Of a stretch of DNA of 64,000 bases, positions 12,181-38,557 are shown one piece after another; within the stretch, counting starts at the first letter, position 1; the number at the start of each line of letters is the position of its first letter. Source of the stretch: Candidatus Aminicenantales bacterium (GTDB taxonomy: Bacteria > Acidobacteriota > Aminicenantia > Aminicenantales > UBA4085); the NCBI GenBank assembly GCA_049515535.1, contig JBEKTZ010000001.1, forward strand, positions 80,599-144,598, in the 5' to 3' direction. The notes below the pieces were generated by a model. That model saw only the letters and a program-made list of their open reading frames with translations, had not been told where the DNA came from and searched no databases. Position numbers and translations under genes: made by a program.

Positions 12181-12243
12181 GAGAAACAATGCTGGTAGCG
12201 CTACGGGGATTCGAACCCCGGTTTGATGGCTGAGAACCAACCG
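12181..12243. repeat. attL-like direct repeat: copy of the 3' half of tRNA-Glu plus 3' flank (63 bp, 1 mismatch versus 38471-38533)
   Basis: 12191-12243 is identical to 38481-38533. 12181-12189 is identical to 38471-38479. It contains the T-arm and acceptor 3' strand (GGGGTTCGAATCCCCG...CCA, reverse complement) without the tRNA 5' half. Confidence 0.75.
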
Positions 12244-12265
12244 CATGCCCATCTCATACACCTCG

Positions 12266-13714
12266 CTAATTGATTGTCGTAGAAGAAGTTACGAGGGTCA
12301 AAGAATCGGCCGATTTTTCCGCGTCACAGATACGTAACAGATTTGAGGGCTTTTCGGACTTTTCGCAGCCGGGAGCGTCGAGCTTTTCAACCGCCGCACT
12401 CATCTGAAGCAGGCTTGAATGGAGATAGATCTCCGTCGTCTTTAGGTTCGCATGCCCTAGGATGTTTTTAACCGTGATCGGATCGACTCCCCTGCTGATG
12501 AGACGTGTTCCTACCGTATGTCGAAGATCATGGAAATGAAGATTTTTAATCTTCGCCCGCTTGCAAGCCATCGTAAAAGCCCTCCGAACAGTCGTAACGG
12601 GACGAAGCTTGCCTGTTTTCGAGTCCTCGTATAGGAAAACGTAATCGTTCCGGCCTTCATTGATCCGCCGAAGCCGCAGGAGTTCGTTGAAGAGAGGCTT
12701 GTTGATCGGAATTATGCGCTTTTTCCCGCTTTTGCTTGTTTCCGGCTTTACCGTAATCTGCAATTTTGCCATATCCACATTCTCCCAGGAAAGACTGAGA
12801 ATCTCAGAATAGCGCATTCCTGTCGCCAAGGCGCAGACTAAGATCGATCTCAAATGCGGCGCAGCAGCCAGAAAAAGCCTCGTTTCTTCTTCATACGTAA
12901 GAACCCTCTCCCTCCGATACGCATCTTCAGAAAAATAATTCCCCTTTTTAACGGGATTTCGTTCGATCTTGTAGCCCCATTCAATGCCCAGGGAAAGCAT
13001 CTTTTTCAAGACGGTCAGTTCTCGATTGATAGTCGAGTTCTTAACTCCGTCCTTCTGTCGTTTGACCATGAATTGGCTAACGTGGAGAGGGGTTATCTCT
13101 TGAAGATCAATTTCGCCAAAGAACGGTTTGAGTTGAGCCCTGATGTATTTCTCATCCGACCGCCAACTCCGCTTTTTCACTTTGGCATAGTTGTTCAGAT
13201 AAACTTCTGAAAACGCTGAAAAGATGATTTGCTGTTCGCTCTTTTGGGCCCTGTGCTCATGGTTGAATTCTTGGGCGACCATGCGCTGAAGCGCTAAGAG
13301 AGCTTCCTCTTGGGTGATGGCATGCGGGACGAGTTTCTGGATTCTCTGGCCTTTGCTTCGATAATCGACGTACCAGCGAATTCCTCCATTTTTTATCTTC
13401 CTCTGATAGATCGCACCATAGCCAAAATTATAGCGAGTCTTGGACTTGGACGTTCTTGCCACCTCGCTCATACCTCCTCGTCCCACTATTGCGTTTGGCG
13501 AGAGCTGGGCCAAATCAAACGCCATGGTATCGAGAGCTGGGCAATTTCTTTTGCCTTGGTCAATCCAAATGTCGAGATCGCTCCGGCGAAAGCGGAGTCC
13601 GAATCTCTTTCGAATGTATGGAAGGGCGCCGCCCCGTACATACCTGTAGACCGTCGTCCTTGACACCTGAAGAAGGCTTGCGACATCGGCGCAGGTCATC
13701 AGATGGTCAGGCAA
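12266..13714 (-). CDS. int: tyrosine-type site-specific recombinase/integrase (phage integrase family) with N-terminal HTH
   Basis: C-terminal catalytic signature HDLRHTVGTRL...LGHANLKTTEIYLH (R..H..R..Y). N-terminal MerR/excisionase-like HTH (ADVASLLQVSRTTVYRY). Immediately adjacent to the att repeat. Confidence 0.9.
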   Translation of the reverse strand: MPDHLMTCADVASLLQVSRTTVYRYVRGGALPYIRKRFGLRFRRSDLDIWIDQGKRNCPALDTMAFDLAQLSPNAIVGRGGMSEVARTSKSKTRYNFGYGAIYQRKIKNGGIRWYVDYRSKGQRIQKLVPHAITQEEALLALQRMVAQEFNHEHRAQKSEQQIIFSAFSEVYLNNYAKVKKRSWRSDEKYIRAQLKPFFGEIDLQEITPLHVSQFMVKRQKDGVKNSTINRELTVLKKMLSLGIEWGYKIERNPVKKGNYFSEDAYRRERVLTYEEETRLFLAAAPHLRSILVCALATGMRYSEILSLSWENVDMAKLQITVKPETSKSGKKRIIPINKPLFNELLRLRRINEGRNDYVFLYEDSKTGKLRPVTTVRRAFTMACKRAKIKNLHFHDLRHTVGTRLISRGVDPITVKNILGHANLKTTEIYLHSSLLQMSAAVEKLDAPGCEKSEKPSNLLRICDAEKSADSLTLVTSSTTIN

Positions 13715-13801
13715 TCATAACCTCAGCATAATGAAATAACCCCTGCGAGGCCCGGGCCGAGAATCTCTGAAGTCGGGCTTCCGGCACAGGGGAACCGCTA
13801 T

Positions 13802-14098
13802 TCACAAAGTCTCATCACCCTCGTCGGGCAGCTTGCCTTCGCCGCTGGCATTGGATCCAAGTTTGGAATTCAGCCTCTTCCAGAGCTCGTAGGCTTTGTC
13901 GATCCCTTCTTTCAGCTGGGGGAGTAGTTCACGACGAATTGAAATGCCCTTAGTCCTCGGTTTCCAGACGTCGGCATAGTTATCGAAGTAGAAGATTCTA
14001 GCCGATATCAAATCTGTGCCCTCGTACTTCGTGAATTGAATTCGGACTACTTCCCGGGAGTTCTTTTTGAACTCGAAAACCGTTGCTTCATTTGCCAT
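13802..14098 (-). CDS. hypothetical protein (island cargo)
   Basis: 98-aa ORF between the integrase and the replication module. No recognisable motif. Confidence 0.35.
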   Translation of the reverse strand: MANEATVFEFKKNSREVVRIQFTKYEGTDLISARIFYFDNYADVWKPRTKGISIRRELLPQLKEGIDKAYELWKRLNSKLGSNASGEGKLPDEGDETL

Positions 14099-14122
14099 GG
14101 CAATTATTCCTCCTTTGTCATC

Positions 14123-14326
14123 TTAAAAAAGTCGTGCTTTGTTGCCCCTAGAGCTATCCCCGATGAGCCCCAGGCCTACACCCATTGGCTTTCCACTTGT
14201 CCCTAGTCGAAGATCCCAGCCGGAAAGGACATAGGAGGCTGGTTCGATTAGGAAAAATACGGCCTTTTTGGGCGACCCGCCGGAGCATTCCGGGCAATGT
14301 CGCCCGATTGCTTTGCTTTTATTCAT
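14123..14326 (-). CDS. hypothetical small zinc-ribbon-like protein
   Basis: CPEC motif in a 67-aa ORF. Weak support. Confidence 0.25.
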   Translation of the reverse strand: MNKSKAIGRHCPECSGGSPKKAVFFLIEPASYVLSGWDLRLGTSGKPMGVGLGLIGDSSRGNKARLF

Positions 14327-14370
14327 GATTCCTCCTTCAAGGAAAAAGCTGTGACAACCCTGCCGGGGAT

Positions 14371-14500
14371 GGTGGACGAAATGAATAAAATGTCGGATAA
14401 GCTCGTATCTAATTGAAAGATCATGAAATAGAATATGGCTATTTCGTCCACTCTATATATATCCAGGCGGGTGTCCAACCGTGGACGAAATGGACGAAAT
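14371..14500. repeat. iteron-like cluster: 4 copies of GGACGAAAT (two tandem, one inverted) just downstream of the primase-helicase gene
   Basis: GGTGGACGAAATG at 14371-14383. ATTTCGTCCAC (reverse complement) at 14442-14452. GTGGACGAAATGGACGAAAT at 14481-14500. Flanked by the AT-rich TCTATATATATATCC. Confidence 0.35.
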
Positions 14501-16345
14501 CTATTCCCGCGGCTCATCTTGATCGCCCATTAGCTGGAGCATTTTGGGGTTTCCTTTCCCCTTTATCACTCTGACACGGATCTGATGCCGCTTTGTCGCT
14601 TCATAAATCGCCTCTTTGATCAAGCGCACAGCGGCTACATCCCTGAATTTCTCGATGATTTGGGATTGAAGCATCTCGCCGCCGTTTTCCCGCAGGGCTT
14701 CGACGATATCTTGGGCGGATACTTTTTTATTCTCTTTGGGCTCGGCATTCTCGTACCATAGCGTCTCTGGATCCCGATGTAAGATCATGGGTTCAAGAGA
14801 AGACGCATTTCTAAGTTCGAACGACAAGATGCCATATTCTGAACGTGGCGACGTGAGCGAGTACTTATTCGGAGGGATTCGGCTGAACGTCCAATTTGCA
14901 TCCGAGGCTGCCGCGATTACCGAGGAACCTCTATGTAATTCACCACCTTCGCGCCCTAATAAATTGGGTTTCCCAAAGTGATGGATCAGAGAAACGGCGA
15001 TCTCGTATCTTTTTATCAAATCGTGGACAATTCGGAAGAAGGCCGCCATATCTTCAGCCGTGTTTTCTTTTTTTGTATGGAACGTATACATGGGATCAAG
15101 GAAGACAATGTCGGGACTTATTTCCTCGATGATCCCGCGTATCTTTTTGAGCCCTTCATCGGAATCGAGGAGAAGACCTCTCTCGGACTTAAGGAAGAGA
15201 TTCTCCAGGGCGCTGCTTGGATCCGGCGAAGTCGCAGCCGGCAAAACACCCCCCATCATTTTTTTCAACCGCTCTTGCAAGGACTCCTCGCTCACCTCTT
15301 GCTGAATTAGGAGTACGCGGCAGGGCTGATTGATGTCAAAGCCAAGCCAAGGCTTGCCGTTGGCGAGACTCAAGGCGATATTCAGAGACAAGATGCTCTT
15401 CCCGAGCTTCGCCGGTCCGGAAAGAATCGTCAGCTCTTTTTTCGCGAGCAGAGATCCCATCAGGCATTGGCGCGGGGGAATAGGCTTTTCAAGAAATTCT
15501 TTTAACGATTCGACACCGGAGGTGCGGGCTGATGGAATGAGAGCCTTCCGATATTGGGGAGTATCTTTTATGAGCCGCTCAAGATATTCCTTACCCTCAA
15601 GTCCGTTTTCGAGCCAATCCGAGATGTCTTCCTTTTCCCGCAGCCCCGGCAACTTCAGGATTTTAACCGAGGCCGCGTCTTTCAGCAGAGACTCCGCCAC
15701 CTTTTGAGCATGTTTTTTGCCCGGCTCATCGTTATCCGGGATGATGACGACTTCCTTTCCTTTGAAATATCCGGAAAATTCATCCTTCCAATTCCCGGCA
15801 CCATGAGGATTCGTCGTAGCGGTCCATCCGAGCTTTTCTTTCACCGTATCGACATCTTTTTCGCCTTCAACGATCAGCACGAAATGAGCATTGATGATCT
15901 CGTCGAGTCGATAGGGCACCCTCCTGGTAGCCTTTAGGTCCCAAATCCAACCGCCGTTGCCGTTCGGTCTGCGATACTTGAAGGACTTGGGATTGGAACG
16001 GACACATTGATAGAGAAGGTTTCCCGATTCGTCGACGTAGTCGTAAATTTTTACGATCTCGGGACCATCAGAAGGAAGCTCTTGGGTAAGGCGGCTAATG
16101 GCTTCCGCTATATCGATATGCTCTTGCTCTACGAGAAAGTCGATAATCGACCCTCCCTTGCCGCACCCGAAACAATGCCAGAGCCAAGTCCCATCCTCTT
16201 GGCTGATCGATAAGGACGGATTGGTATCATGATGGAACGGGCAGAGAGCATGATCGGAGTTATTGAAAATGAGCCCGTATTTGTCCTGAAGGTATTTTTT
16301 CAGGTCGATCTTCTTAAGATCTTCGATCTGATCTTTCATATGCAT
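14501..16345 (-). CDS. bifunctional DNA primase (CHC2 zinc finger + Toprim) / RepA-DnaB-like P-loop helicase
   Basis: N-terminal CHC2 zinc finger (CPFHHDTNPSLSIS...HCFGCG). Central Toprim-like acidic motifs (IVEGEKD, IIPDNDEPG). C-terminal Walker A (LTILSGPAKLGKS). This is the P4-alpha / primase-helicase architecture. Confidence 0.8.
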   Translation of the reverse strand: MHMKDQIEDLKKIDLKKYLQDKYGLIFNNSDHALCPFHHDTNPSLSISQEDGTWLWHCFGCGKGGSIIDFLVEQEHIDIAEAISRLTQELPSDGPEIVKIYDYVDESGNLLYQCVRSNPKSFKYRRPNGNGGWIWDLKATRRVPYRLDEIINAHFVLIVEGEKDVDTVKEKLGWTATTNPHGAGNWKDEFSGYFKGKEVVIIPDNDEPGKKHAQKVAESLLKDAASVKILKLPGLREKEDISDWLENGLEGKEYLERLIKDTPQYRKALIPSARTSGVESLKEFLEKPIPPRQCLMGSLLAKKELTILSGPAKLGKSILSLNIALSLANGKPWLGFDINQPCRVLLIQQEVSEESLQERLKKMMGGVLPAATSPDPSSALENLFLKSERGLLLDSDEGLKKIRGIIEEISPDIVFLDPMYTFHTKKENTAEDMAAFFRIVHDLIKRYEIAVSLIHHFGKPNLLGREGGELHRGSSVIAAASDANWTFSRIPPNKYSLTSPRSEYGILSFELRNASSLEPMILHRDPETLWYENAEPKENKKVSAQDIVEALRENGGEMLQSQIIEKFRDVAAVRLIKEAIYEATKRHQIRVRVIKGKGNPKMLQLMGDQDEPRE

Positions 16346-16631
16346 CTTCCTCGTCTTGAATAAATTTTTTTATCACCTCTTGATATTTCGCGATGACCGC
16401 ATTTTGAATCGTCTCTCCCACCGTGCGAGACAGGGGACGGAAACAGCACGTCCCCATCTTCATGGGATAGACGAGCCGGAAGCCGCCGGGCGTGGAAGGT
16501 GATGTATAAATGGCGACGGAGCCGACGAAATAGCGCCCGTCAATTAGAAAGGAAGCGAAGGCGACCAAGCCTTTCTGGGGAGGAACGGGGGCGATTTCTA
16601 TTTGGGCAATCTCGATTTCTTCTTTACACAT
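16314..16631 (-). CDS. hypothetical protein (overlaps primase start)
   Basis: 105-aa ORF with plausible composition. No motif recognised. Confidence 0.3.
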   Translation of the reverse strand: MCKEEIEIAQIEIAPVPPQKGLVAFASFLIDGRYFVGSVAIYTSPSTPGGFRLVYPMKMGTCCFRPLSRTVGETIQNAVIAKYQEVIKKFIQDEEDAYERSDRRS

Positions 16632-16732: not shown

Positions 16733-17899
16733 TTAGGCGAGGCCGGGGATTCGATCAATTATTTTTGATACATGTTCAACAATGGTATTATTTGAATCGA
16801 TTACTCTTCTTATTTGTCTTTTGCTTGAATTGAAGATTTTTGACACAAGAAACAGAGCTAATTCAGATGGTTCAGCGGTCCGAATAGTGTCTAATATTTC
16901 TAAAAACATAGTTTCATTTAGGATTTTTTTTATATCTTTTTCTTTCATGGGGCTCTGAGCATCGAGGCCGGCGCGCTTCCTCATTTCCTGCCTGAACTCT
17001 TGCTCGGGCATGCCATACCTTGGAAGCTGCTTGAACAAATCAAAATTATTTATTAACCATCCTCCACCTATGCTTTCCCACGAATCATAGCCTTTACTTA
17101 TTTCCCAAAGTTTCAATAGATCCTTTTTTACTTCAAAATATCGGTGCTTCCTAAGGAAGATTCTATATTTACGCCATTCTTTTCTCGCCTCTTCATTTGA
17201 ATATAGCTCTTTGACTATCGGACGACTTTTGACAAATATTCTCCTTAAATACTCGTACCTAAAAACAATTCGGATTTTTTCCTTTTTGGTATAGCTGGCG
17301 GGGCCCCTCGTGACAATGCCTGCTCTATTTTTAAGCTGATAGACCAATTCATCAATTTTGTTGGACATTGCAGATGATTCAAACCAATGCTGGAATAGCC
17401 TAAAAAATATCGGATTCTTTAGTATTGTAGGTCCTTCAAATAAATACACGAGGTTTTTAAGATTATTCTCGTTAGCTAGGATCGCCGTATCCAGATAAGA
17501 CGACTCAGCTTTTCTTTTAAGATCTCTAAAGAAGGCTAGGTCATCGGCGGATAATTTATTACTTGCAGCTCCCCCAAAATTCTTCTCTCTCTTCGGCTTT
17601 ATTTTTTCTTTTGACAAGACTTCTTCAATTAATCGGTCGACTTCATCATCCAAACATAGGTCAATCCATTTTTGATTAGATTCGATTTCAAGTTCCTGAA
17701 TAATCTGGCCCAGCATATCTCTGAGAAAGATTGGAGTCTTGTTTTTATAGAGGTCTGCCCAGGCTTTTCGTCTGGAAATAAATTCGAGCTTTCTGTGACT
17801 TGAATCAAGCTCCTCTTCATCAAGTCTGATCGAAATTATTTTTTCTCTTAAATCGCTGCAAATATTTAGCTCAGCCCAATATTTCTCTTTTTCAGACAT
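16733..17899 (-). CDS. hypothetical protein, AT-rich orphan (Lys/Glu-rich, 388 aa)
   Basis: Long clean ORF in a markedly AT-rich block (16.7-18.1 kb) within a high-GC context. Preceded by an AT-rich promoter-like region at 17900-18130. No recognisable catalytic motif. Confidence 0.55.
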   Translation of the reverse strand: MSEKEKYWAELNICSDLREKIISIRLDEEELDSSHRKLEFISRRKAWADLYKNKTPIFLRDMLGQIIQELEIESNQKWIDLCLDDEVDRLIEEVLSKEKIKPKREKNFGGAASNKLSADDLAFFRDLKRKAESSYLDTAILANENNLKNLVYLFEGPTILKNPIFFRLFQHWFESSAMSNKIDELVYQLKNRAGIVTRGPASYTKKEKIRIVFRYEYLRRIFVKSRPIVKELYSNEEARKEWRKYRIFLRKHRYFEVKKDLLKLWEISKGYDSWESIGGGWLINNFDLFKQLPRYGMPEQEFRQEMRKRAGLDAQSPMKEKDIKKILNETMFLEILDTIRTAEPSELALFLVSKIFNSSKRQIRRVIDSNNTIVEHVSKIIDRIPGLA

Positions 17900-18160: not shown

Positions 18161-18289
18161 TTAATCAGACCCACAGATTGCACACTTCCCCATGAAAATA
18201 TCCGTATCATCGTAATCCTCAAACGGCATCGGCAATCCGCAGGTGTGACAGAAAAGGACGATAATTTTCTGGCGTTTGATTCGCGCCAT
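18161..18289 (-). CDS. possible 42-aa zinc-ribbon micro-protein (MARIKRQKIIVLFCHTCGLPMPFEDYDDTDIFMGKCAICGSD)
   Basis: Not in the ORF track (below its length cutoff). Two CxxC pairs. ATG with a purine-rich upstream stretch. Lies directly downstream of the SNF2 gene. Competes with a plus-strand ORF at 18140..18424. Confidence 0.25.
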   Translation of the reverse strand: MARIKRQKIIVLFCHTCGLPMPFEDYDDTDIFMGKCAICGSD

Positions 18290-18466
18290 GAGAATAATTC
18301 CCGCTTTCCTTCGTCCTTCCTGATGAGGCCAGATTTTGCCTTCGCGGTGTCGTTTTCATCGGGAGGCTTGTCGATGAGCCAGGTTTCCCCGCCTCATTGC
18401 TGCACTCCAGTCTTTGAACAGTAGAGGGTTTATACTTTGAAGATAGAAACCCATGGTTCACCTCTC

Positions 18467-21400
18467 CTATTGCGCAGGCTTTAGCTTTCCTACCTCCCAG
18501 CGGTGGTCGGCGAAGGCGGCGTCGATGCTGCTGCCGGAAAGGCGGGAGCGTTGATCGTTGGGTGTGAGGGTACGGAGGAACTGTTCCAGTTCCCACGCGA
18601 GTTGTGGGGTCCAGCCGAACCGGCCGCCAAGCGATTCCTTGGCCCGGCGAATTCTTTCCGCGAGCGGGCCGGTGCGGGCTGCCTGGGCTTCGGAAAGTTG
18701 GGCAAGGTCCGCAGCAGCAGAGTCGATGCAGCGCAGTAAGCGTCCAACTTCGCGATTAAGTCTCAATGCTGCGGAGGCGCGTTGCGCGGCGAGGTTGGCC
18801 TGTTCTATCTTGGCGGCACGGCTCTCCAATTCGCGGACCTGGCGTTCAGCTTCCTGTTGGGCGTGCCGCGCGGCGGCTGCGATCTTCTCCGGGGCGGGTA
18901 GTGTACCGTCCCATTCCTCCACACGTGCCCGCAGGGCGGCAAGGTTCTGGAGTGGTTCCGCGGCGTTTTCGGAGACCCAGAAGGCGCATGAGCGGCGAAA
19001 GGCTCCGACTCGGGCGCTGCCAACAACGAGTGGCAAGGTCTCGCCGGGCCGCGTCAGGCGGTCGGCGATCTGCGCGACCTCTGGGCTAAGTGCTGTAAGG
19101 GGCCGCGCGGTGGGGGCTACGTCCAGCGCCGGATCGACGAAGGCAAAGGTGATCGGCTTGTTTTCGAGGCCCTTGACTATGACAGTTCCCTTCGCGGCAT
19201 GTCCGGAAATCTGGAGACCGTAATCTGGTTGAAGGATTTCCAGAGCGGAAACGATGTCGGCGCGAGTTACTGAGGGTGTTGGCTGATCGATCTGGACCGC
19301 TTCGGAGTCGAGGTAGGTTTCGGCGCTGATGAAGTTGCGCTCCGCCTCGAAAGCAATGCGCTCCAACTCGTCCACGGAGAACTGGCCAGGGTGATTCAGC
19401 ATGACCTGGGCGCGGGCGAGCACAGGCTGCATCGTACCAACGAAATGCATAAACAGGCCGCACCGGCGGCGAAGCGCACCGTAGACCTTCTCGTCGATGC
19501 TATCCTTGAGCAGGAAGTTGTAGACTCGGATTTCCCGCTCACTTTGGCCGATTCGGTCAATGCGGCCGATGCGCTGCTCGACCTTGCTCGGGTTCCAAGG
19601 CAGGTCGTAGTTGATGAGGGCGCTGGCGGTCTGGAGGTTCAACCCCTCGCTGGCGGCATCAGTGCAGATGAGGTAGCGTATAGTCCCCTGTTTGAGGGCG
19701 TCGGTAATCTCCCTCTTCGTGACAGGGATCCATTTACTTTCCCGGTAGAAGGCGCCGCCTCCGCCGCTGTAGCTTGCGACCTGCTCGGCGTAGTGATTCG
19801 CGAGGTTGTCTCGGAGATACTCCATAGTTTCTGCGTACTCGCTGAAGACGAGGATGGGGCGCCCTTCCGCGGACAAATCCCGGATGCGATCGAAGAAGCG
19901 GTCGCGCTTGGTATCCGTGGCGCCCAGGGCGCGGAGTTGGTCGAGCAGAATCGTGACTTCGGCGGCTTCCCTGCGAGCATCTTCCGGGTTGGTGGGCAAA
20001 CTGGCCGGGATGGCTCGGGTGTCGAGGCCCTCGGGGATGTCGGCATCGCTGAGGCCGGCGGGCACGTCAGTCTCTTCGATGTAGCCGGAACTGGCGCGCT
20101 GAGTCATCACGCGTTGCAGACCGGCAAGGCGGCGCTCCAGACTGCAACGGAGCGCATAGGGCGAGCTAGCCGCGCGGCGGCGGTAGATCGTCATGACAAA
20201 GCCCTTGCCGGGCTTTTCCCCTTCAAGTTCCTCAAAACGTTTCTCAATGTAGCGCGCAACGGCATTATAGACCCGGCGTTCCGGGCCGTTTGGCGGCTGG
20301 AAGTCGAAGGGGATGTCAACCACGACGCGTATGGGCGGAGCTGCGGGGAGAAGGCCGCGTTGGTGGTAGTCCCGGAGCGTCTTCCGGGTGTTACGGTGCA
20401 TCCGCCTGGCGAGTGGCGAGCCCTGACGAAGCCAGCGGATCACATCGTCCTTCCAGCCTGGTGGAACAAACCGTAGGCGGCGTTCGCCGTCCTGCGGCGA
20501 GGCGATCCGCGCGAAGCCTGCTGGCGGAGGCGGGAAACGTAAGTCGGATGTGACTAGAAAGGCAGCGCGGTGGGCGTCTTCCGGGGAGGGAGTGCCGGTC
20601 TTGAGCCCGTGTATGAGGCCATAGAAGCCGCGGACACCCTCGAAGTCGGAGAGCCATGCGCCGCCCTCGCCGAGGATAGACATGAGGTCCCAAGGTTCCC
20701 ACGGGGACGTTTGCATAGGCGTGGCACTGAGCAGTAGGAAGCCGCAGGCTTTGCGACGGACCTGCATCAGGCGGAGCAGATTAAGGAGAAGTGTGGATGA
20801 ATTGAATTCGCCTTCCTCCTGCTTGCCTCGTCGCGCGGCGTGGGCCTCGTCCATAAGCACCAAGTCCCAGGGTCGAGCGGCAAGCAAGATGTTGGCGTTG
20901 GACTCTGTCCTCGCCGTCTCGCGGCTCATGAGGAGGAAGTCTTGTTCGAGGGCTGCGGCCAGGCCTGGAAAGTGTTGGGTGCGGCCATCCGGCCAGACGA
21001 GCGTGTCGAGACCCTGGAGGCGGGGGACGACCAGACCGCCCTTTTCGCGGAGCTCATCCTGCCATTGGGCGGTGAGGCCAGCGGGGAGTAGCAACAGGGC
21101 ACGGGCGACGCCGCGGCCAGCCATGAGGCGGCGAAGGATCATAATGGCCTCGATGGTCTTGCCCATCCCGACTTCGTCGCAAAGCATGCGGCCGTCCGGC
21201 CACGCGGCGGACGCTTCCTCGATCACAACCCGCTGGTGCGGCCAGAGGTCAATCGGCGAGGTGGCTTCGCACGCGGACGCGCCACTTTCCAAATAAGGAG
21301 CCTCGGCAATGAAGCGCCAGAGCACGGCGGCCTTGCGTCGGGCAAGGGCGTCCGTGGGTTCCGTGACCGGGGGTTCCGGCGGCGCGAGTTTGACGAGCTT

Positions 21401-30673: not shown

Positions 30674-31564
30674 TTATTTTGTTTTATTGATTTTTGGAAT
30701 TTTTTTTGAGAAATATTTGGACAGAGAAGGCGAGAAATCTTCCACTATTGACAGCCACGGCCTGTCCGGCAATAGCGGGCCTACCATTCGATTCAGCTTT
30801 CCCCTGTCAAACAGCTTGATTATCTTTCCTCGCTCTTTCGCTCGGCCGACTGCTTCATAGGCGCGGTAAGTGAAATGGTCGGCTGTGGAGACCAAGATTC
30901 CGTTCAACGAATCCTTTAAATCCAACGCCCCAAGGAGATTGCGTATAGTTGCTACACCCTCAGAGGAATTGGGGCGTCCGCGCCTCTTGACCTGTATGAG
31001 CCACTGTTTCTCCCTTGAATCAATAAAAACTACATCAACGCCGCCATCGCTGGGCTTGCCGACATGAAACACTTCGCAATCTCCGTGATTTGCCTTAAAG
31101 ACAGAAGCCACCAGTTTTTCAAGTCTGGCAGGACTTATCGTGTGCCAAATATTTTTGTCTCTCCTAACAGCCTGAGCAAGCTCATCATCCGGCCCTTCGG
31201 GCAATTTCCCTTCAAAGTCTCTTAGCTTGGAAATATAAGCATCCGAAATTAATTCCGATGCGGTGTTGTCTTTGCCCTCATGCCAGTACCACTGCCAATA
31301 TGCGCAATAATCACAAGACCATAGAGTGGAATCAACTAAGAAAACGAATCGTTTTGATTCAGGGTCATTTTGTTCTTTATAAAAATCAGCCGAACGCAGG
31401 GAAGTGCCGCAGAATGGGCAATTTTTTATTTCCGGGAACTGATCGTAAACCCACTCATAAATTAATTCGGCTTGCTCACCCTCAATACATTCTCCATTAA
31501 TTTCACATGTGAAGTCTGCCGCGACAATATGGTCATGTGGTATCTTGGAAGCTTTGGACATCAC
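30674..31564 (-). CDS. Mrr-like (Mrr_cat) restriction endonuclease-domain protein with N-terminal Cys-rich (zinc-ribbon-like) domain
   Basis: C-terminal PD-(D/E)xK signature DGGVDVVFID...QWLIQVKRR matches the Mrr catalytic pattern (GIDG...IQ.KR). N-terminal CPFCG...CDYC Cys cluster. The exact first codon is ambiguous. Confidence 0.7.
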   Translation of the reverse strand: MMSKASKIPHDHIVAADFTCEINGECIEGEQAELIYEWVYDQFPEIKNCPFCGTSLRSADFYKEQNDPESKRFVFLVDSTLWSCDYCAYWQWYWHEGKDNTASELISDAYISKLRDFEGKLPEGPDDELAQAVRRDKNIWHTISPARLEKLVASVFKANHGDCEVFHVGKPSDGGVDVVFIDSREKQWLIQVKRRGRPNSSEGVATIRNLLGALDLKDSLNGILVSTADHFTYRAYEAVGRAKERGKIIKLFDRGKLNRMVGPLLPDRPWLSIVEDFSPSLSKYFSKKIPKINKTK

Positions 31565-31794: not shown

Positions 31795-33192
31795 TCATGC
31801 GTGGTGCTTCTGGCGCCAGCTAGCAAACATAGCCCGTCGCGCCTTCCATGACGGCGGAGATGGTTCGAGACGTTGAATCCGGACGTTGTCCCAGACGAGG
31901 AGCCGCCTCCCGTCTCGCAACACGGCCCGTACATCGCCATCCTGAGAGACTACAAAGCCGACGCTGCCCGGATATGCCCAGCAATATCGCATCATTGAGC
32001 GATGACGGGTGCCGAGACTGTCAATGGCGAAACTACGCAGACTTGCTGGCTGCGCCGTAGCAGTGGTCGCGAGATGAACTCGGGGCGGCTCCTCTCTCGT
32101 CGTTATCTCCACGCCAAATGCTTGGATGGCTAGATTTCCTGTGGCCAACACCAGCCCGTCAATCCTGGATAGTCCGGCAACGAAGGTGGCGCAACCTGCC
32201 TCAGCACTGATGGCGTCCGACTCGTCGGTTTTGGCTATAGACTCCTTCAAGTAAAGATCGGCTGGCACGGTGTCCAAGCCTGGGTCGAGGTAATCTTCGA
32301 TAATATCTTGGCCGGTTCGATAGGCGATAAGTCGACTTGCAGATCGCAAGGCCAGCACGGTGGCAAGTTTCCTATACTGGAGGACATACTTCGGCCGCAA
32401 TCCGGCCCAGTTAAGGCGCGGCAGCAACAGCAACGCCCCGCCATGTCCCTGTCGGCGGATGGCCAAGAGAAGGCGACGCAAGCCATCCGTCCAGGTTTCA
32501 GCCGCCGTTTTCAGGTCGAATGGACCCGGTCGGACTGCCTCGCGCCGCAGAATGTTGCGTACACTCCGCATATGGTGCCTTACGAATGGTCGAAAACACC
32601 GATTTACGGGACCGTGGCTGAAGACATCTATCTGGCCCGGCGCAATTGAATCCTGTCGAAGTGTAGCTATGAGATATTTTTCGTCGTACACTGTCAGCGC
32701 GCCTTGGCCCGTGATCTGCAGCTGGAAGACGCCGGGGCGCCCAAAGGACACTTCTCCCTCGAAGTGTATGTTGCTTTCGAAATGGAGCTCTTGGTCGAAC
32801 ATGCCCCAGGCAAATGGTCGATGCGCTGCGTCGGCGAAGACAGCCAACGCCGCTGAATATCGCGGCGCGGCCTGCGCAAGCTTAGCCAGGGAGGCCGCTG
32901 TGAGGGCAACGCGGTTCTCGAATGGGAATAGCGACCCTCGTTGCGGCCTCACAAGAGGCGGATCTGGATCAGGGTGCTTCGGGTCCATAAACACGAGCGT
33001 ACAGGTGCATGGCCTGCTCTCGTCCCGTCGCATGCTGGCGAAGTAAGCGACCTCGAAGAGCCTGGTAAGGCTCAATAGAGGCGGTGGCCTACGGCCTACC
33101 TGGTGAAGATGTCTTAGCAGCCGAATGGCTAGATCGCGAGGATAGCTACTCGCCATGTAGGTTACTCTATGCGCCGGCCCAACAATGATCAT
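31795..33192 (-). CDS. protein with C-terminal diadenylate-cyclase-fold (DAC/DisA_N-like) domain; N-terminal 300 aa unknown
   Basis: C-terminus aligns to the CdaA/DisA DAC core: DGLVLATGNLAIQAFG (DGA region, as DGL), LGTRHRS (RHR motif), FVVSQDGDVRAV (VVSEETG region). May start at the second Met (MASSY, 33156). Confidence 0.6.
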   Translation of the reverse strand: MIIVGPAHRVTYMASSYPRDLAIRLLRHLHQVGRRPPPLLSLTRLFEVAYFASMRRDESRPCTCTLVFMDPKHPDPDPPLVRPQRGSLFPFENRVALTAASLAKLAQAAPRYSAALAVFADAAHRPFAWGMFDQELHFESNIHFEGEVSFGRPGVFQLQITGQGALTVYDEKYLIATLRQDSIAPGQIDVFSHGPVNRCFRPFVRHHMRSVRNILRREAVRPGPFDLKTAAETWTDGLRRLLLAIRRQGHGGALLLLPRLNWAGLRPKYVLQYRKLATVLALRSASRLIAYRTGQDIIEDYLDPGLDTVPADLYLKESIAKTDESDAISAEAGCATFVAGLSRIDGLVLATGNLAIQAFGVEITTREEPPRVHLATTATAQPASLRSFAIDSLGTRHRSMMRYCWAYPGSVGFVVSQDGDVRAVLRDGRRLLVWDNVRIQRLEPSPPSWKARRAMFASWRQKHHA

Positions 33193-33224: not shown

Positions 33225-33898
33225 CCCTTTCCGTATAAGAAGTCTCTTCCTTTCCTTATCTTTTCGTCCATCGCCTTTCATTCCGACTAGTTACCTCCGT
33301 CTTTCACCACAGAGCTTCCCGGACGGAATAATCGCCTTTTTTTTCGCGACGAAGACAACTTTCTGTCTTGTCTGTAAATATCCCCCGGTTAACATATATG
33401 TAGATTATCACTCTGATTCGAAAGATGTCAATTTTCTATAATTTAGGAGGGGCGGAAGACTTCGAATGAATGCTCTAAAACATGGGTAAGATTTTTAAAT
33501 AGCTTGGAAAAATTTCTTTTGGTCAGCGCAGGACGAACCGGCTAGTGTTGTTCCTCGCACTCGGCATGTTTGCTGCGGAGGAACCCGGCGGGTTTTCCAC
33601 AATACTTGCAGTTGCCCAAAGTGACCTCCTGAAAGTGCTAACAATAAGATCAGCCGCGAGTGTAACGAGTCGGCTACATTGCCTTGTTGGGGACTATGCG
33701 TTTTCGAGTAAGTGACCCGCCCCCACTTTGTGTACCACCTGTGAAGTGAAAATTCTAGGTTCTGGACCTGCCCCCTGATTAGGTCCATTTTTTAGGTTAG
33801 AAAAATATTTTATGGAGGGAGCCTCACCCCAAAACTGATCCAGCCAAAAATGAAGTTTTTTGGCTTTGTTTACTCCTTGCGAATTTATCAACGAACTC

Positions 33899-34642
33899 CT
33901 ATGGCGTCAAGTCTCCGAGCGCGCTATGCGGTCGAAACCTATTGTAGTCCTCTCGCAACTTCTCTATTTTTTCTCGGGCGTCCTCCATCGACAAGAACCA
34001 ATTGACGTTCAGGCATTCATCCCTGAACGTTCCGTTGAACGATTCGATCATCGCGTTATCCATAGGTTTACCGGGTCTCGAAAAATCTATCGTGACTCCG
34101 CTTTCATAGGCCCACTTGTCTAAAACCCTTGAAATAAATTCGCTCCCGTTGTCGCATTGGATGCGATCCGGAGCGCCCCGCTCCTTCACCAGCCGCTCGA
34201 CGACAGCCGCCACTTCCGCCCCCGTGAGGCTCTGGCCGGCTTCGATCGCCAGGCACTCGCGACTAAAATTATCGACTATCGTTAAGGCCCGGAATCGATG
34301 GCCGTTGAAGAGGCTGTCGACCACGAAATCCATGCTCCAGCAGACGTTGGGACGGCCGACCTCCGGCCGCGCCATTCGTCGGCTTCCCGTGACATGGCGC
34401 CGAGGACGCTTTCGGCGTAAGTTGAGTCCCTCCTGGCAGTAGATCCGATAAGTCCGCTTGTGATTGACGCGCCAGCCCTCGCGCCGAAGCAGGACATGTA
34501 TCCGACGATATCCATACCGAATCCGTGTCTCAGCGATCTCCCGGATTCGCATCCGCAGAGCTCCGTCGTCCTTGTGGTGCGAACGGTACCGATGGGACGA
34601 ACGCCAGATCCTGATCACCTCGCATGCCCGCCGCTCGCTCAC
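33899..34642 (-). pseudogene. IS3-family transposase OrfB (rve integrase core) truncated by an in-frame TAG
   Basis: DDE core (WSMDFV...DNGSEF...). Translation ends at ...HSALGDLTP*. Reading through the TAG at 33899-33901 gives EFVDKFARSKQ..., restoring the conserved LG(Y)LTPxEF tail. This points to a nonsense mutation. Confidence 0.65.
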
Positions 34643-34692
34643 CCAATACGCTTCCTCAAGATGCTCGACACGTTCCCGTCTCTGGGCTGGCT

Positions 34693-34965
34693 TCAGAATT
34701 TTTTTGAGAGCACATCCTGGAGCATCTGCTTATCCAGGCTCAGGTCAGCGACCATGCGCTTGAGACGCCGGTTCTCCTCCTCCAGTTGCCTCAAGCGACG
34801 CAGCTCCGATACTCCGAGCCCTCCGTACTTCTTCTTCCAGCGATAGAACGTCTGCTCCGAAATCGCCATCTTCCGGCAAACCTCGGGCACCCGGGTCCCC
34901 GTCTCGGCTTGCCGCAGAGCGAAGGCGATCTGCTCTTCCGTGTACTTCGATGTCTTCATCGACAA
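34693..34965 (-). CDS. IS3-family transposase OrfA (HTH)
   Basis: MSMKTSKYTEEQIAFALRQAETGTRVPEVCRKMAISEQTFYRWKKKYGG is the canonical IS3/IS911 OrfA. Leucine zipper follows. Confidence 0.85.
   Translation of the reverse strand: MSMKTSKYTEEQIAFALRQAETGTRVPEVCRKMAISEQTFYRWKKKYGGLGVSELRRLRQLEEENRRLKRMVADLSLDKQMLQDVLSKKF
34699..34705 (-). other. programmed -1 ribosomal frameshift slippery heptamer (A AAA AAA) at the orfA/orfB junction
   Basis: OrfA ends ...CTC TCA AAA AAA TTC TGA. The A7 run sits at the expected IS3 position. Confidence 0.5.
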
Positions 34966-35087
34966 AACCTCCTGCTGAGAGATTTTGCCATAAAACTCAC
35001 ATTATCGGTGGACCATTTTTAAGGGATGAGGTCCATAGGCTTAGAAGCTTTGAGTATTATTGCATGATCTATAAAAATTAGATTTTT

Positions 35088-36350
35088 TTACTTGGTCATC
35101 TTTGTAATCATAATGGGAATCCCAAATCGAAATGGACATTTTCCTATATATGATTCTGGATTTAAATTTATATCTGGCAAACCATTATCCTTGAACCAAT
35201 ATTCCCATTCCTTTCTGCCCAATTCCAAAACTGTATCTAATTCATTTTCCCAATTTTCATTTAATTTATAAATTTCTGATAATCCAATTAAATGACTAAT
35301 CTTTTTGCCAACATCCGAATAATCTTCTTTATCTGTAATTCCCAATTCAGATATTTCGCTAATGCATGAACTGAAAGATTCCTTATTTTTGGTATTTTTA
35401 TAATCATTTAATGAACTCAATATTACGAATCCTAGTCCAGGGATTGGCTTTTTTCCGGAATTAAGACTCTCCTCTTCAGCTGATCTTGTAGCAATTCCTG
35501 TATAGTTGTCATGAATTAATTTATAAATTTTTGTTAAAGGAATATCTGGGCTATTCAGCCATCCAAATTCGTCTGTAACAATGATGACTCGTTTAAAATC
35601 CGCTCTTCCTAAAATTAGAAGTAATAGGAAAAATCCTTCAACTATTGGGATTTCTTCAAAAAATTTTAAAATATTAGCAGAAAGTTCCTTTCTATATTTT
35701 TTATAAGATAAGAACAATGCAAAAGATATCGCTAATTTATCACCATAAGAAAGGCCCGTTTCTTTTAATTTATCATAAAGAGCTTTTCTTTCAAAGAAAA
35801 TCCTAATATTTCGAGCATAGTTTCTGAATGGCATTAATAAAATGCCTGCAATTCCAAAAGATGCAGCTGTTGTAATCGCGCTAAGAATAAGCAAGGAACT
35901 TGCGATGGCATCAAAAGCGACCGAAATTCTGCTTTCGCTTTTCTGTTTCTTTTCGTTATATCTATTATCTTCAATACCGATTCGTGTGTGGATTTCTCTA
36001 AGAAGTTCTCCTGGCCTAATATTACGGCCTTCGCTGCTCGTAAGAAGCACTTTGCCAATATTCATTTGGCCTTCCTGGTTAATATAAAGGAATAAGGTAT
36101 TTTCCAGCCCGATCGCCAGCTCCTTAATATAATATGCACAGGTTGATTTTCCGGCTCCATATTCTCCTTTTATAAGCAAACTTCTGAATTTCTTTGAACT
36201 TGTTTCACTCCATAATTTAGATAAGATGTTCGCAAATTTTTCGAAAGGCTTTCCTCCTGCGAAACTCGATATATATTCTTGGGGAACCCCCTTGTTTTTT
36301 AAAGAAGTAATTATTGCATCCGCAATTTTCGCAGAAATGGATTTACTCAT
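35088..36350 (-). CDS. KAP-family P-loop NTPase (membrane-inserted P-loop)
   Basis: Walker A GEYGAGKST. Hydrophobic transmembrane insert between Walker A and Walker B (ISVAFDAIASSLLILSAITTAASFGIAGILLMPF). Walker B RVIIVTDEFGW. AT-rich gene. Confidence 0.7.
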   Translation of the reverse strand: MSKSISAKIADAIITSLKNKGVPQEYISSFAGGKPFEKFANILSKLWSETSSKKFRSLLIKGEYGAGKSTCAYYIKELAIGLENTLFLYINQEGQMNIGKVLLTSSEGRNIRPGELLREIHTRIGIEDNRYNEKKQKSESRISVAFDAIASSLLILSAITTAASFGIAGILLMPFRNYARNIRIFFERKALYDKLKETGLSYGDKLAISFALFLSYKKYRKELSANILKFFEEIPIVEGFFLLLLILGRADFKRVIIVTDEFGWLNSPDIPLTKIYKLIHDNYTGIATRSAEEESLNSGKKPIPGLGFVILSSLNDYKNTKNKESFSSCISEISELGITDKEDYSDVGKKISHLIGLSEIYKLNENWENELDTVLELGRKEWEYWFKDNGLPDINLNPESYIGKCPFRFGIPIMITKMTK

Positions 36351-36355
36351 TTTAT

Positions 36356-36634
36356 TTAGGTGAAGAAGCCCTTTTTATTCTTTTTTGAAAGTTCTTCCGT
36401 GAGATCGTCAATCTTAGATGAAAGGCTATAAAGTGCTTCTGATATTCTTTGATTTTGATAAGACGATTTCTCAATAAAGAGAAAATATTGATCAATTTTT
36501 CTTAATAATTTCATTAGGTAAAATAGGAAAAAAATAGAAACTGTTGTTTGTACAACGATAAATACTAATAATACTAAGTTTAGAGTTGACATATTTTCCC
36601 TCGCAATTAGCTCTAATATATTGGAAAAAATCAA
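36356..36634 (-). CDS. small membrane protein (one TM helix), upstream partner of the KAP NTPase
   Basis: 92-aa ORF with a hydrophobic helix (LNLVLLVFIVVQTTVSIFFLFYL). Separated from the KAP gene by 5 bp. AT-rich. Confidence 0.45.
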   Translation of the reverse strand: MIFSNILELIARENMSTLNLVLLVFIVVQTTVSIFFLFYLMKLLRKIDQYFLFIEKSSYQNQRISEALYSLSSKIDDLTEELSKKNKKGFFT

Positions 36635-36734
36635 ACCCTATTTTAGCTTCTTCCCCTTTCAAAATAAGTATACTAAATTCCTTTTTCTGCTTCAATGAAA
36701 ATTATGCTGTTTGGGATGATCGCTCTTTCTAACC

Positions 36735-37019
36735 TTGCTGCGGATCGGTTCTGAAGATCTTGCATACGATCCCTACGTGCTCTCGGGCATCAACGACCTC
36801 CGGATCGATGCTGCCGACAACGTCTATGCCCTGGATCGTGAGGAATTCATGATCAAGGTCTTCTCGCCGACGGGCAAGTACATTAAAACCTATAAGGAAT
36901 TTGATTTTTCTGCGGCCTGGCGAATTCCCGCTCCGACCGATGAATCTCCCAGTCTTCCGATCCCCAAGCTGACCCGCTTCCAAAATTCTAGGAGACCAAA
37001 GACAGGGCTTTTTAGCTAA
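36735..37019 (+). pseudogene. NHL-repeat beta-propeller gene fragment (remnant)
   Basis: NHL-repeat-like segment GINDLRIDAADNVYALDREEFMIKVFSPTGKYI. No start or signal context. Only about 90 aa. An alternative minus-strand ORF 36729..37127 exists. Confidence 0.25.
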
Positions 37020-37513
37020 ATTCGTGACAAAATCTGATTGAAAATGATGGCTAGGGTTATCGTCTTGGAATGAAACAGAAAAGAGAAAAAGGGGTTGGTA
37101 GGGTACCCTTACCCCCCCTCTCGCCAAAAGCCCGTCCTAAATGCGCTACGACGTCCTGGGTGAGCGTCACGACCATTCCTTATGCGTTCTCAGAAGGGTC
37201 AGAACATAATAATCGATGCGCTGGAGGGCAAGCGCCGGCATTCGCCCTGATCTCCGGCCAGATATCAATCAGAGTTTTTATATGAAAAATTTCCCGAAAA
37301 TTCACAGCAAAATCTCGAGTATGGTCATCTGAACAGCCCGGCAGAATTCCCATAGGGGGGTGCCCCCCCGGCCCTCGCTTCTTTCTGCCTGCCTGGCCAA
37401 GCTTGAAACGCCCAATTTTCAACGCTCACGGACTCAATTGGGGAGGTCGCTCCCTTGCGCAATAGAAGGACGCCGGTGATCAGCCGGCGCAATAGTAGAG
37501 CGAGGCAAACGCC

Positions 37514-38020
37514 ATGAGGAATCAACAAACGGAGCGCGGGATCATGAAGCTCCCCTTCACCAAGAAGCCCGTGAAAATGCCCGTTTTCGAGCGGCCGGAT
37601 TACCATGACGGCGCGATGTTATGCAGCTCCGGCGCTGTCTTCGAGGCGTTCAAGAGCTACGCGAAGGCGGATCGGGAATTTTTTGTCGTCGTGTATCTGG
37701 ACCCGAAAAACCGGGCGATTGAAGTTATTGAGGCAAACGAGGGCACGATTGATAGCGCGGCCGTGTATCCGCGCGAGATCATCCGGGGCGCGCTCATCCT
37801 GGGGGCGACGGCGATCGTCTGCTTTCACAATCACCCGAGCGGCGACCCGGAACCTAGCCTATGCGACAAGGAAATTACTAGAGAAATCTTGTTCGCCTGC
37901 AAAATCATGGGAATCCGGTTTTTAGATCATGTCGTCATCGGCAACAATTGCTATTACAGCTTCGCGGACAAGGGCCTCATTGAAGACTACGATCTTCGTT
38001 TTCTTTCGTTGAACCGATAA
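37514..38020 (+). CDS. radC: RadC-like JAB/MPN (JAMM) domain protein
   Basis: JAMM motif HNHPSGDPEPSLCD. Characteristic RadC length and context (mobile-element cargo). Confidence 0.85.
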   Translation: MRNQQTERGIMKLPFTKKPVKMPVFERPDYHDGAMLCSSGAVFEAFKSYAKADREFFVVVYLDPKNRAIEVIEANEGTIDSAAVYPREIIRGALILGATAIVCFHNHPSGDPEPSLCDKEITREILFACKIMGIRFLDHVVIGNNCYYSFADKGLIEDYDLRFLSLNR

Positions 38021-38032
38021 GGAGGCTATGTC

Positions 38033-38338
38033 ATGCCGCAATTCAAGGCGACAGAGGACGGCGGCTTAGAGATCGACGGCCGGAAGGTCCTTAAGGCCTG
38101 GGAATCGTTCTCGGGCTGGTATTTGTTCGGCTTCGAGATCGCCGAGACGCGGACGCCGGGGAAGGACGGCGGCGGGTCGATGATCGACGGCCGCGAGGTC
38201 CCGGACGTGATATGGTTCGGGCTCGTCCAGGGATTCGAGGAAGAGCTAGGCTATTTCAGCGAAGCCGAATTGAAAGCAGCCGCTCCGCGCGTCTGGCAGA
38301 TCAAGCCCCGGGACCTGCCCTATGCCGGGCGAAAATAG
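38033..38338 (+). CDS. hypothetical protein (co-oriented with radC, 12-bp spacing)
   Basis: 101-aa ORF with good composition. No motif. Confidence 0.45.
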   Translation: MPQFKATEDGGLEIDGRKVLKAWESFSGWYLFGFEIAETRTPGKDGGGSMIDGREVPDVIWFGLVQGFEEELGYFSEAELKAAAPRVWQIKPRDLPYAGRK

Positions 38339-38470
38339 GACATAAATTTGAAAAGCTGAGGCAATCCCGTGTCACACCGGCGTCACAGAATTTGCCTAAA
38401 ATCGCTTAATCTTGGCTATTGGTGCTTAAAAGACAAAGCAAGAAAAATGAAGAAATATCAGGGGAAAATA

Positions 38471-38533
38471 GAGAAACAAGGCTGGTAGCGCTACGGGGAT
38501 TCGAACCCCGGTTTGATGGCTGAGAACCAACCG
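38471..38533. repeat. attR-like direct repeat (overlaps the 3' half of the intact tRNA-Glu)
   Basis: Matches 12181-12243 with 1 mismatch. Confidence 0.75.
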
Positions 38534-38557
38534 TCCTAACCCCTAGACGATAGCGCC
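38483..38557 (-). tRNA. tRNA-Glu (anticodon CUC), 75 nt with encoded CCA
   Basis: Manually folded cloverleaf. Acceptor GGCGCTA/TAGCGCT (G1-U72). D-arm GTCT-AGGGGTTA-GGAC. Anticodon arm GTTGG-TTCTCAG-CCATC (one U-U mismatch). 4-nt variable loop, typical of tRNA-Glu. T-arm CGGGG-TTCGAAT-CCCCG. Discriminator A plus CCA. Confidence 0.7.

Follow-up and report, generated by a model that had tools for sequence, protein, structure and literature searches.

A 26.3-kb integrative island with predicted Hma-type defence cargo at the tRNA-Glu(CUC) gene of a Candidatus Aminicenantales bacterium

Genomic islands in tRNA genes (tDNA islands) of the kind collected with Islander and TIGER have an intact tRNA gene at one end, a co-oriented downstream 3' fragment of that gene at the other and a tyrosine integrase gene between the two; the identity block starts at the anticodon stem and extends beyond the 3' end, and the gene is restored by island sequence. 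A 3' fragment is found in 3760 of 3919 Islander islands and an anticodon-centred (A-type) site in 2083, and the two together make up the commonest Islander class (PMC4383910). According to reviews, the integrase gene usually adjoins the tRNA gene (PMC2704930). A stretch of 64,000 nucleotides (nt) from a Candidatus Aminicenantales bacterium (GenBank assembly GCA_049515535.1, contig JBEKTZ010000001.1, positions 80,599 to 144,598 of the forward strand), called the window here and numbered from its first letter, contained an element that is like the described tDNA islands in all these structural respects, while its integrase gene adjoins the displaced tRNA fragment and not the intact tRNA gene, an arrangement conserved in the integrase family. 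With a probability of about 90%, this element is a 26.3-kb integrative island that entered tRNA-Glu(CUC) by tyrosine-integrase site-specific recombination.

Analysis of the window showed a 63-nt direct repeat with one mismatch, at 12181-12243 and 38471-38533, the copies lying 26,290 bp apart from start to start. The mismatch is T at 12190 versus G at 38480, and an exact block of 53 nt (12191-12243, identical to 38481-38533) lies within the repeat. About 10 nt of weaker similarity extend the repeat outward to 73 nt at 93% identity, with decaying patches further out. On the tRNA, the repeat spans the sequence from the base preceding the anticodon stem to the CCA, plus 12 nt past it. The 53-mer had zero matches in any of 100 shuffles of the window, and no third copy of the repeat core was present in the window with up to 3 mismatches tolerated. 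A sequence-only reading of the same DNA had described a single-mismatch 63-bp repeat, 26.3 kb apart, made of the tRNA 3' half and 12 bp beyond the CCA end, and its coordinates were borne out. Its placing of attL and attR within the 63-bp core also holds, and the 53-bp exact block sets tighter limits for the att site.

The tRNA call passed covariance-model scoring, as the Rfam tRNA model gave 55.3 bits (threshold 29) at 38486-38557 on the minus strand. ARAGORN reported a tRNA-Glu(CTC) at 38483-38557 and a second one at 12193-12267, both on the minus strand. The first is the tRNA-Glu(CUC) gene (38483-38557, minus strand), which is predicted to be functional, is identical to the tRNA of two conspecific contigs described below and is the integration target. 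The second was rejected as a tRNA gene because it scored only 22 bits in Rfam against the threshold of 29 and had no D arm; it is a displaced, genuine tRNA 3' half fused to island DNA. Read along the minus strand, this left repeat copy stands downstream of the tRNA and has the same orientation. The features by which Islander recognises an island were thus all found, namely intact tDNA at one end, a co-oriented downstream 3' fragment at the other and a tyrosine integrase, neither of Xer nor of integron type, inside the interval.

Conspecific contigs provided the uninterrupted site, the comparative feature on which TIGER relies. With the flanking S9-type peptidase as protein query, a 93%-identical variant (P0001) was returned on 13 JGI metagenome contigs, of which two (L081 and L082) were read, while the remaining contigs were reported with similar neighbours. 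The DNA of L081 and L082 was about 98% identical to the window over positions 72-8190 and they belong to the same species as the window; over the peptidase gene the identity was only 94%, against the roughly 98% around it. In both contigs an intact tRNA-Glu(CUC) stood upstream of the peptidase at a distance of about 190 bp, and in the alignment their sequence equalled window 38596 to 38534 (tRNA promoter and 5' half), followed by the core and then by 12180 to 11985 (the flank on the attR side). The blastn alignment of L081 to the left flank of the window began exactly at 12243, and its alignment on the tRNA side covered 38596-38382. This uninterrupted site is the predicted attB, and no island DNA was found in L081 or L082 except a 115-nt repeat. 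At the mismatched position the empty site carries the base of the left copy (12190) and not that of the right copy (38480). The left copy (12181-12243, minus strand) therefore kept the chromosomal sequence and is attR, consisting of the displaced tRNA-Glu(CUC) 3' fragment with 12 nt of chromosomal downstream sequence, as in L081 and L082 including the polymorphic base. The right copy (38471-38533, minus strand) received island sequence and is attL, in which an island-supplied tRNA 3' half and 12 nt are joined to the chromosomal 5' half so that the gene is regenerated.

These results also bear on whether a mobile element has to be assumed at all. If the second copy were a chance match or a local duplication (a tRNA pseudogene), the genes between the copies would be native to the chromosome, and the labelling of both copies as tRNA-Glu by ARAGORN agrees with that. 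The left copy, however, has no real 5' half and is adjoined by an integrase gene, the shuffles gave zero matches, and the junction of integrase and tRNA fragment recurs in four other elements with differing downstream genes. The uninterrupted site in conspecific genomes is considered to refute this explanation already, and its probability is negligible.

The empty site predicted by the sequence-only reading (S9 peptidase, tRNA-Glu, Usp) was found in part: the peptidase-tRNA side stood in L081 and L082, while the Usp side did not, as other DNA lies upstream of the tRNA promoter there. Divergence between the window and L081 1-5578 was complete from 38597, a short way upstream of the tRNA-Glu promoter's -35 box. 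Beyond this point the window contained Usp, HAD and FucI-like genes, while L081 had about 5.6 kb of co-oriented small open reading frames (ORFs; ankyrin, zinc-ribbon, DUF5678 and aspartic-protease-like) and an IS200-type Y1 transposase. The region 5' of the tRNA is a second, separate variable region on the side untouched by the integration. The exact FucI protein was on record, but its contig stops before the tRNA. A superoxide dismutase gene (Sod_Fe_C) stood between the peptidase and a pseudouridine synthase in the relatives (L081 8433-9249) and was absent from the window at 9436-9470. The flanks of the island consist of ordinary metabolic genes on both sides, as had been claimed from their housekeeping-type appearance. 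A scan of GTDB representative genomes for the peptidase gave 80 loci, the nearest with 65-70% protein identity, with no nearby tRNA or other flank genes; these loci are too distant and share no neighbours, and are therefore uninformative on the integration site. The host is placed by them among Candidatus Aminicenantes / Acidobacteriota.

The integrase gene (12266-13714, minus strand) is a 482-amino-acid (aa) ORF from a TTG, with a likely start at Met6 (13699), and its end is 22 nt from the repeat. The protein matched HTH_17 (2.3e-12), Phage_int_SAM_3 and Phage_integrase (4.3e-33) in Pfam and phrog_1, integrase (7.9e-77), in PHROG. Its N terminus exceeded the curated cut-off of the excisionase domain TIGR01764 in NCBIfam, while its scores against the XerC, XerD and XerA equivalogs were far under the cut-offs. 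Alignment to XerA (4a8e) placed the catalytic set at R301, K331/K332, H395-x-x-R398, H421 and Y430, and these positions were nearly invariant across a family alignment of 57 sequences. The protein is thus predicted to be an intact non-Xer tyrosine recombinase with a complete active-site set. In an AlphaFold2 model of residues 1-165 (mean pLDDT 82), residues 1-51 formed a winged helix-turn-helix (HTH), followed by a disordered linker and then by a sheet of three to four strands with a helix. Fold searches matched the first domain to BldC, RacA and the mycobacteriophage Pukovnik Xis (target TM-scores 0.70-0.80), and the second to the arm-type binding domains of P4-like, HPI and HAI7 integrases; the fold matches had weak E-values, which is to be expected of a model in which a flexible linker joins two domains. 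Four domains (Xis/BldC-like winged HTH, beta-sheet arm-binding, core-binding and catalytic) are distinguished, and the protein is an integrase of the arm-binding kind to the front of which a further, Xis-like domain is fused.

Among described recombinases, the integrases of lambda, Tn916 and P4/HPI are the closest in layout. Like the window integrase, they have a beta-sheet arm-binding domain at the N terminus along with a core-binding and a catalytic domain (R-K-H-R-H-Y), as well as arm-type sites, which are candidates in both arms here. The window integrase differs in its additional Xis/BldC-like winged HTH (HTH_17, TIGR01764) at the extreme N terminus, and the PDB sequences nearest to its catalytic domain are Xer-type. 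At least 524 database proteins matched the integrase at E <= 1e-20, and most of the best 120 listed among these had the HTH_17-integrase architecture. Homologues in JGI were often named 'excisionase family DNA binding protein', and no characterised member of the family was found. A 2021 survey of tyrosine recombinases used HTH_17 only as a profile for separate excisionase genes (PMC8138268). No close relative of the integrase was present in IMG/VR, where the best match was 27% identical.

The genomic contexts of seven integrase relatives were retrieved. The integrases of L083, L086, L094 and L095 were 53-63% identical to that of the window and lay in different chromosomal contexts. In all four the integrase was the last gene of the element, and within 20-25 nt of its stop stood the anticodon stem-loop and 3' half of a tRNA-Glu(CUC). 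The tRNA identity started at the 5' strand of the anticodon stem in each of the four, and the block began one base before the stem, as in the window. Genes downstream were plainly of housekeeping type in three of the four (xanthine-dehydrogenase-type genes in L083, a peptidase in L094 and, a few genes along, a galactokinase in L086), while the first downstream gene in L095 had no Pfam match. A more distant integrase (L096, 44% identical) showed the same geometry on a different tRNA-like 3' end. Four independent short contigs (L084, L085, L097 and L098) broke 52-54 nt past the integrase stop, inside the repeat, which is consistent with branching of the assembly graph at att sites and possibly reflects mixed integrated and excised states in those samples. 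The claim that the integrase lies at the less common, tRNA-distal end was borne out, since it stands beside the displaced fragment and reviews give the tRNA-adjacent position as usual. From these comparisons, the tRNA-distal integrase is a conserved trait of the family. With attP placed 3' of the integrase gene and its tRNA block co-oriented with that gene, the integrase stays with the displaced fragment and so ends up tRNA-distal.

Downstream of the related element in L086, a 41-nt direct repeat resembling a tRNA T-arm and 3' half (GGAGGTTCGAAT...) was present at 18274-18314 and 20205-20245, the copies being 1.9 kb apart. ARAGORN reported no tRNA at this locus, and the repeat may mark another small insertion.

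The identity block in the window is of the anticodon-centred (A) type. The assignment of the bases at 12190 and 38480 to attR and attL confines the crossover to the 53-nt block, on the side of that base towards the tRNA 5' end. A further relative, L090, pointed to a more precise position. Its integrase was 55% identical and its integrase-proximal half-site was the same (GGCAAGC-GGTTGG), while its loop read CTGAGAA, the reverse complement of TTCTCAG, and past the loop followed the reverse complement of the tRNA-Glu(CUC) 5' half and promoter (L090 6345-6480). This is suggestive of an element inserted in the opposite orientation, with the switch at the anticodon loop. Such a flip is what would be expected if the stem strands were the core binding sites and the loop the overlap region. 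By analogy, strand exchange most probably takes place in the 7-nt anticodon loop, which is flanked by the inverted-repeat stem. L090 looks like the rare 5'-fragment configuration, and the other end of its element is off the contig.

Candidate arm-type sites were found on both sides of the core. The motif CGTMACAGA occurred three times in the 64-kb window, in all cases 79-102 nt from the core and on the island side of the junctions. Each arm had two TGTKAC hexamers, 11 bp apart and in the same orientation, and the arms shared two 10-mers (shuffle p about 0.02). The candidate P-arm sites (12322-12341, minus strand; from motif counts and shuffles) are two TGTKAC hexamers 11 bp apart in integrase codons of the conserved C-terminal LLxICD motif. 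The candidate P'-arm sites (38369-38389, minus strand) are two TGTGAC hexamers 11 bp apart in non-coding DNA, 82-102 nt from the core, and match the P-arm pair in spacing and distance from the core. The codon choice CTG-TTA-C in the LLxICD region was kept in six of seven family members, which hints at a constraint on the DNA itself. The hexamers are put forward as a hypothesis for the arm-type sites; the motif was found post hoc, and both arms were available for the window island only. A promoter-like match at 12301-12273, upstream of the rejected second tRNA call, could have been the remains of a captured tRNA promoter; this reading was rejected, as the match lies within the integrase coding sequence and is not conserved in L083.

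Put together, the integration would have proceeded as follows. The attP site would have stood directly after the integrase stop and contained a tRNA copy that began at the anticodon stem, ended 12 nt beyond the CCA and was co-oriented with the integrase gene. Recombination of attP with attB in tRNA-Glu(CUC) would have occurred inside the shared block, most probably in the 7-nt anticodon loop. One product, attL, would have joined the chromosomal tRNA 5' half to the island 3' half, by which a working gene was regenerated, and the other, attR, would have pushed the original 3' half 26.3 kb away, beside the integrase. The claim of site-specific integration into a tRNA 3' end is accordingly upheld by the repeats, the real tRNA, the empty site and the intact integrase. 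The backbone of the island would be the integrase, a PC4-like single-stranded DNA (ssDNA)-binding protein, a primase-helicase and a SpoVG-like gene. The remainder would be cargo dominated by anti-phage defence (the Hma system, an Mrr-like nuclease, a DACNV protein and an ATPase orphan) together with RadC, and the IS3 element would be a later insertion.

Nearly all island genes were on the minus strand. The PC4-like ssDNA-binding protein (98 aa; 13802-14098, minus strand) matched Pfam PC4 (2.4e-07), and a PC4 gene was found at the same position in L090. The primase-helicase (14501-16345, minus strand), the putative replication gene of the element, contained a CHC2 zinc finger, a Toprim and an AAA_25 domain (Pfam AAA_25 3.5e-30, Zn_ribbon_DnaG 1.3e-16; phrog_239 DNA primase/helicase 5.7e-52), so that the phage-like replication module of the sequence-only reading is recognised in it. 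Its best plasmid and phage matches had less than 40% identity over less than 60% of the length. The SpoVG-like small protein (16314-16631, minus strand) had a weak Pfam SpoVG match and 41% identity to the SpoVG gene of L086 (tblastn 8e-20). An AT-rich orphan of 388 aa (16733-17899, minus strand; GC about 0.36) had no match in Pfam, PADLOC or PHROG. The element is an integrative and probably replicative island.

A repeated leader of about 115 nt was present at 18286-18400 (minus strand), ending in GGAATWATTCTCATGG (a ribosome-binding site and ATG) upstream of a 42-aa island ORF. Its position coincides exactly with the GC break that separates the integration/replication module from the Hma block. 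Copies with 72-81% identity were found in L081 at 713-825, 1205-1317 and 3377-3441, before three different small genes and in the variable region upstream of the tRNA. The repeat was rejected as a structured RNA, since Rfam gave no match and covariation was essentially absent; the repeat could represent a cassette-associated module or a promoter/leader module.

On the basis of its genes, the island carries a predicted Hma-type defence system with two embedded genes. The HmaA-type SNF2 helicase with an N-terminal PLD nuclease domain (18467-22111, minus strand) matched PLD_Helicase (6e-70) and HmaA (2e-45) in PADLOC and SNF2-rel_dom, Helicase_C and PLDc_2 in Pfam, while its NCBIfam phospholipD_antiphage match (3e-99) was under the curated cut-off. 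It is followed by an HmaB-type DUF1156 DNA adenine methyltransferase (22108-25086, minus strand; PADLOC HmaB 1.2e-81, Pfam DUF1156, NCBIfam DUF1156_antiphage). Next come the embedded genes, which by their Pfam matches encode a protein with Schlafen/AlbA_2, HATPase_c_4 and winged-helix domains (25133-26845, minus strand) and a DUF7680 protein (26767-27189, minus strand). The HmaC-type DUF499 ATPase (27186-30140, minus strand; PADLOC HmaC 8e-66, Pfam DUF499, NCBIfam DUF499_antiphage) completes the system. PADLOC defines Hma by co-oriented HmaA, HmaB and HmaC with no more than three genes embedded between neighbours, and here two genes stand between hmaB and hmaC. Among Hma systems, 62.7% have embedded genes (bioRxiv 10.1101/2024.01.29.577857), and the window system is like the described ones in its co-oriented HmaA, HmaB and HmaC and in the genes nested between hmaB and hmaC. 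It differs in that the matches to the NCBIfam anti-phage DUF499, DUF1156 and PLD equivalogs are far under the curated cut-offs, and it is therefore a distant variant. Its Schlafen/AlbA_2-HATPase_c_4 and DUF7680 genes are not among the nine HEC candidates tested in that study (bioRxiv 10.1101/2024.01.29.577857).

The remaining cargo lies between the Hma system and attL. It contained a protein with an Mrr-type restriction endonuclease domain (30674-31564, minus strand; Pfam Mrr_cat 8.5e-16) and a DACNV sensor-domain protein of 465 aa (31795-33192, minus strand; Pfam DACNV 8.7e-15). An IS3-family element of about 1.2 kb (33818-35034, minus strand) had orfA at 34693-34965 and orfB at 33899-34642 (Pfam HTH_Tnp_1, rve, rve_3), and its imperfect terminal inverted repeats (33818-33864 and 34987-35034) were found by local alignment, while a simple inverted-repeat search missed them. 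AT-rich orphans with a GC of 0.31-0.38 followed at 35088-37127 (minus strand), namely a 420-aa ORF with a BrxD-like N-terminal ATPase motif (weak BrxC_BrxD and BrxD matches) and ORFs of 92 and 132 aa, with no PHROG match. A RadC-like JAB-domain protein (37514-38020; Pfam RadC 1.8e-38) was encoded on the plus strand. Beside RadC and near attL, a 101-aa ORF contained a 44-nt direct repeat (38047-38090 and 38158-38201; 73% identity, 111-nt spacing). The GC of the island was 0.54 and mosaic (0.36-0.62), with 0.62 in the Hma block, while the flanks had 0.60 and 0.59. The accessory content described earlier (defence genes, an IS and AT-rich orphans) could thus be identified as Hma, Mrr-like, IS3 and AT-rich orphan genes.

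The gene content raises the question of the type of element. PHROG matches in the island were limited to the integrase and the primase/helicase, with no virion or lysis genes, and the GenBank phage collection gave no DNA match to the island. A phage satellite or degenerate satellite (P4-like or PICI-like, packaged by a helper and with cargo space for defence) is nevertheless suggested by L083 and L086, two relatives whose integrases belong to the same family and have the same target. Both contained a gene resembling the terminase large subunit (L083 5289-6815 and L086 6030-7532; phrog_2 about 1e-23, Pfam TerL_ATPase), showed no further virion genes over the 10 kb upstream of the integrase and carried defence-type cargo (reverse transcriptase, Nmad3/NucS, HNH, SocA_Panacea and CHAT-TPR). 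In both, the terminase-like gene was preceded by a gene of about 145 aa. This suggests a satellite-like lifestyle for the family, and an integrase with a primase-helicase is the typical core of a satellite. The window island, however, shares only the integrase and the SpoVG-like gene with L083 and L086 (tblastn), and no terminase, capsid or helper-interference gene was found in it by tblastn with the relatives' proteins or by Pfam and PHROGs. No helper phage is known, and IMG/VR and the GenBank phages gave no close relative and no DNA match, respectively. Compared with P4-like and PICI-like satellites, the island is alike in its integrase and primase-helicase backbone, its tRNA integration and its anti-phage cargo, and relatives have a terminase-like gene, while no gene for capsid-size redirection, helper derepression or packaging was detected in the island itself. 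Its primase-helicase is of the CHC2-Toprim-AAA_25 type and not a close homologue of P4 alpha, and its integrase core is Xer-like by sequence, although the arm-binding domain resembles P4-type integrases. On balance a satellite is unlikely here, and the island is possibly one that lost or never had packaging genes.

Conjugative transfer, as in an integrative conjugative or mobilisable element, would agree with the RadC gene and with the target, as integration in tRNA genes is typical of integrative conjugative elements. RadC-like genes are common on conjugative elements. The scan of about 25 ORFs with Pfam, however, gave no relaxase, coupling protein or type IV secretion gene, and an island of 26 kb with mostly defence cargo has no room for a conjugation apparatus, so that this type of element is very improbable.

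Another possibility is that the island integrated as described and then became an immobilised remnant, a strain-specific defence island that can no longer excise or transfer. The IS3 insertion, the mosaic composition, which suggests later accretion, and the absence of transfer and packaging genes and of an attP junction all agree with such a fate. It is at odds with the full-length integrase ORF with all catalytic residues and with the undamaged repeats, which are identical at 53 of 53 positions in the exact block and whose sole difference is the expected attP/attB heterology. The absence of the island from the same-species contigs examined (two of 13 read) suggests that it was gained or lost recently. 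Recent mobility is favoured by the intact integrase, the undamaged repeats and the fact that conspecific populations lack the island, and caution is called for by the IS3 insertion and the lack of a detected attP junction. The island may still be able to excise or may now be immobile; the remnant is a tentative alternative about which we are doubtful.

Several observations weigh against an integrative island that moves by site-specific recombination. Neither an excised circular form nor an attP junction was found, and the exact island proteins looked up (primase-helicase and integrase, the latter from Met6) were not on record in the assembly collection, nor were the exact Usp and HAD proteins of the flank. 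A metagenome scan with a pattern of the P arm and core returned only the L083 element and no attP junction. Pfam and PHROG scans of the island ORFs gave no separate excisionase, relaxase, packaging or virion gene, and with no transfer or packaging genes found, passage from cell to cell is left unexplained. The IS3 insertion and the patchwork GC are compatible with a decaying element. The complete order of peptidase, tRNA and Usp was not observed, as L081 and L082 differ upstream of the tRNA promoter, and the crossover point rests on analogy and on the single flipped relative L090, the other end of which is off the contig.

The island and its relatives may tentatively be regarded as an undescribed family of elements in Aminicenantes and related Acidobacteriota. 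Such a family would be defined by an integrase with a fused Xis/BldC-HTH, an attP core about 22 nt past its stop, arm sites in the LLxICD codons, use of the tRNA-Glu(CUC) anticodon loop as a target in either orientation through inversion of the 7-nt overlap, and a satellite-like role as a vehicle for defence. If this is true, directionality control might reside in the integrase itself and not in a separate Xis. The integrase also represents a populous, uncharacterised architecture with a defined target and is a candidate tool for site-specific integration. The mechanism is textbook integration into a tRNA gene, and current understanding is not overturned. What is new is the empty site, the narrower att site, the distal integrase as a conserved result of attP placement and the identity of the Hma cargo. 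To our knowledge, there is no cultured genetics for Aminicenantes (candidate phylum OP8), and few of their mobile elements have mapped ends. In this group the locus provides a mobile island whose limits are precise and whose empty site is verified, and it indicates that a complete Hma system, the genes embedded in it and other genes for defence can be moved together as a unit.

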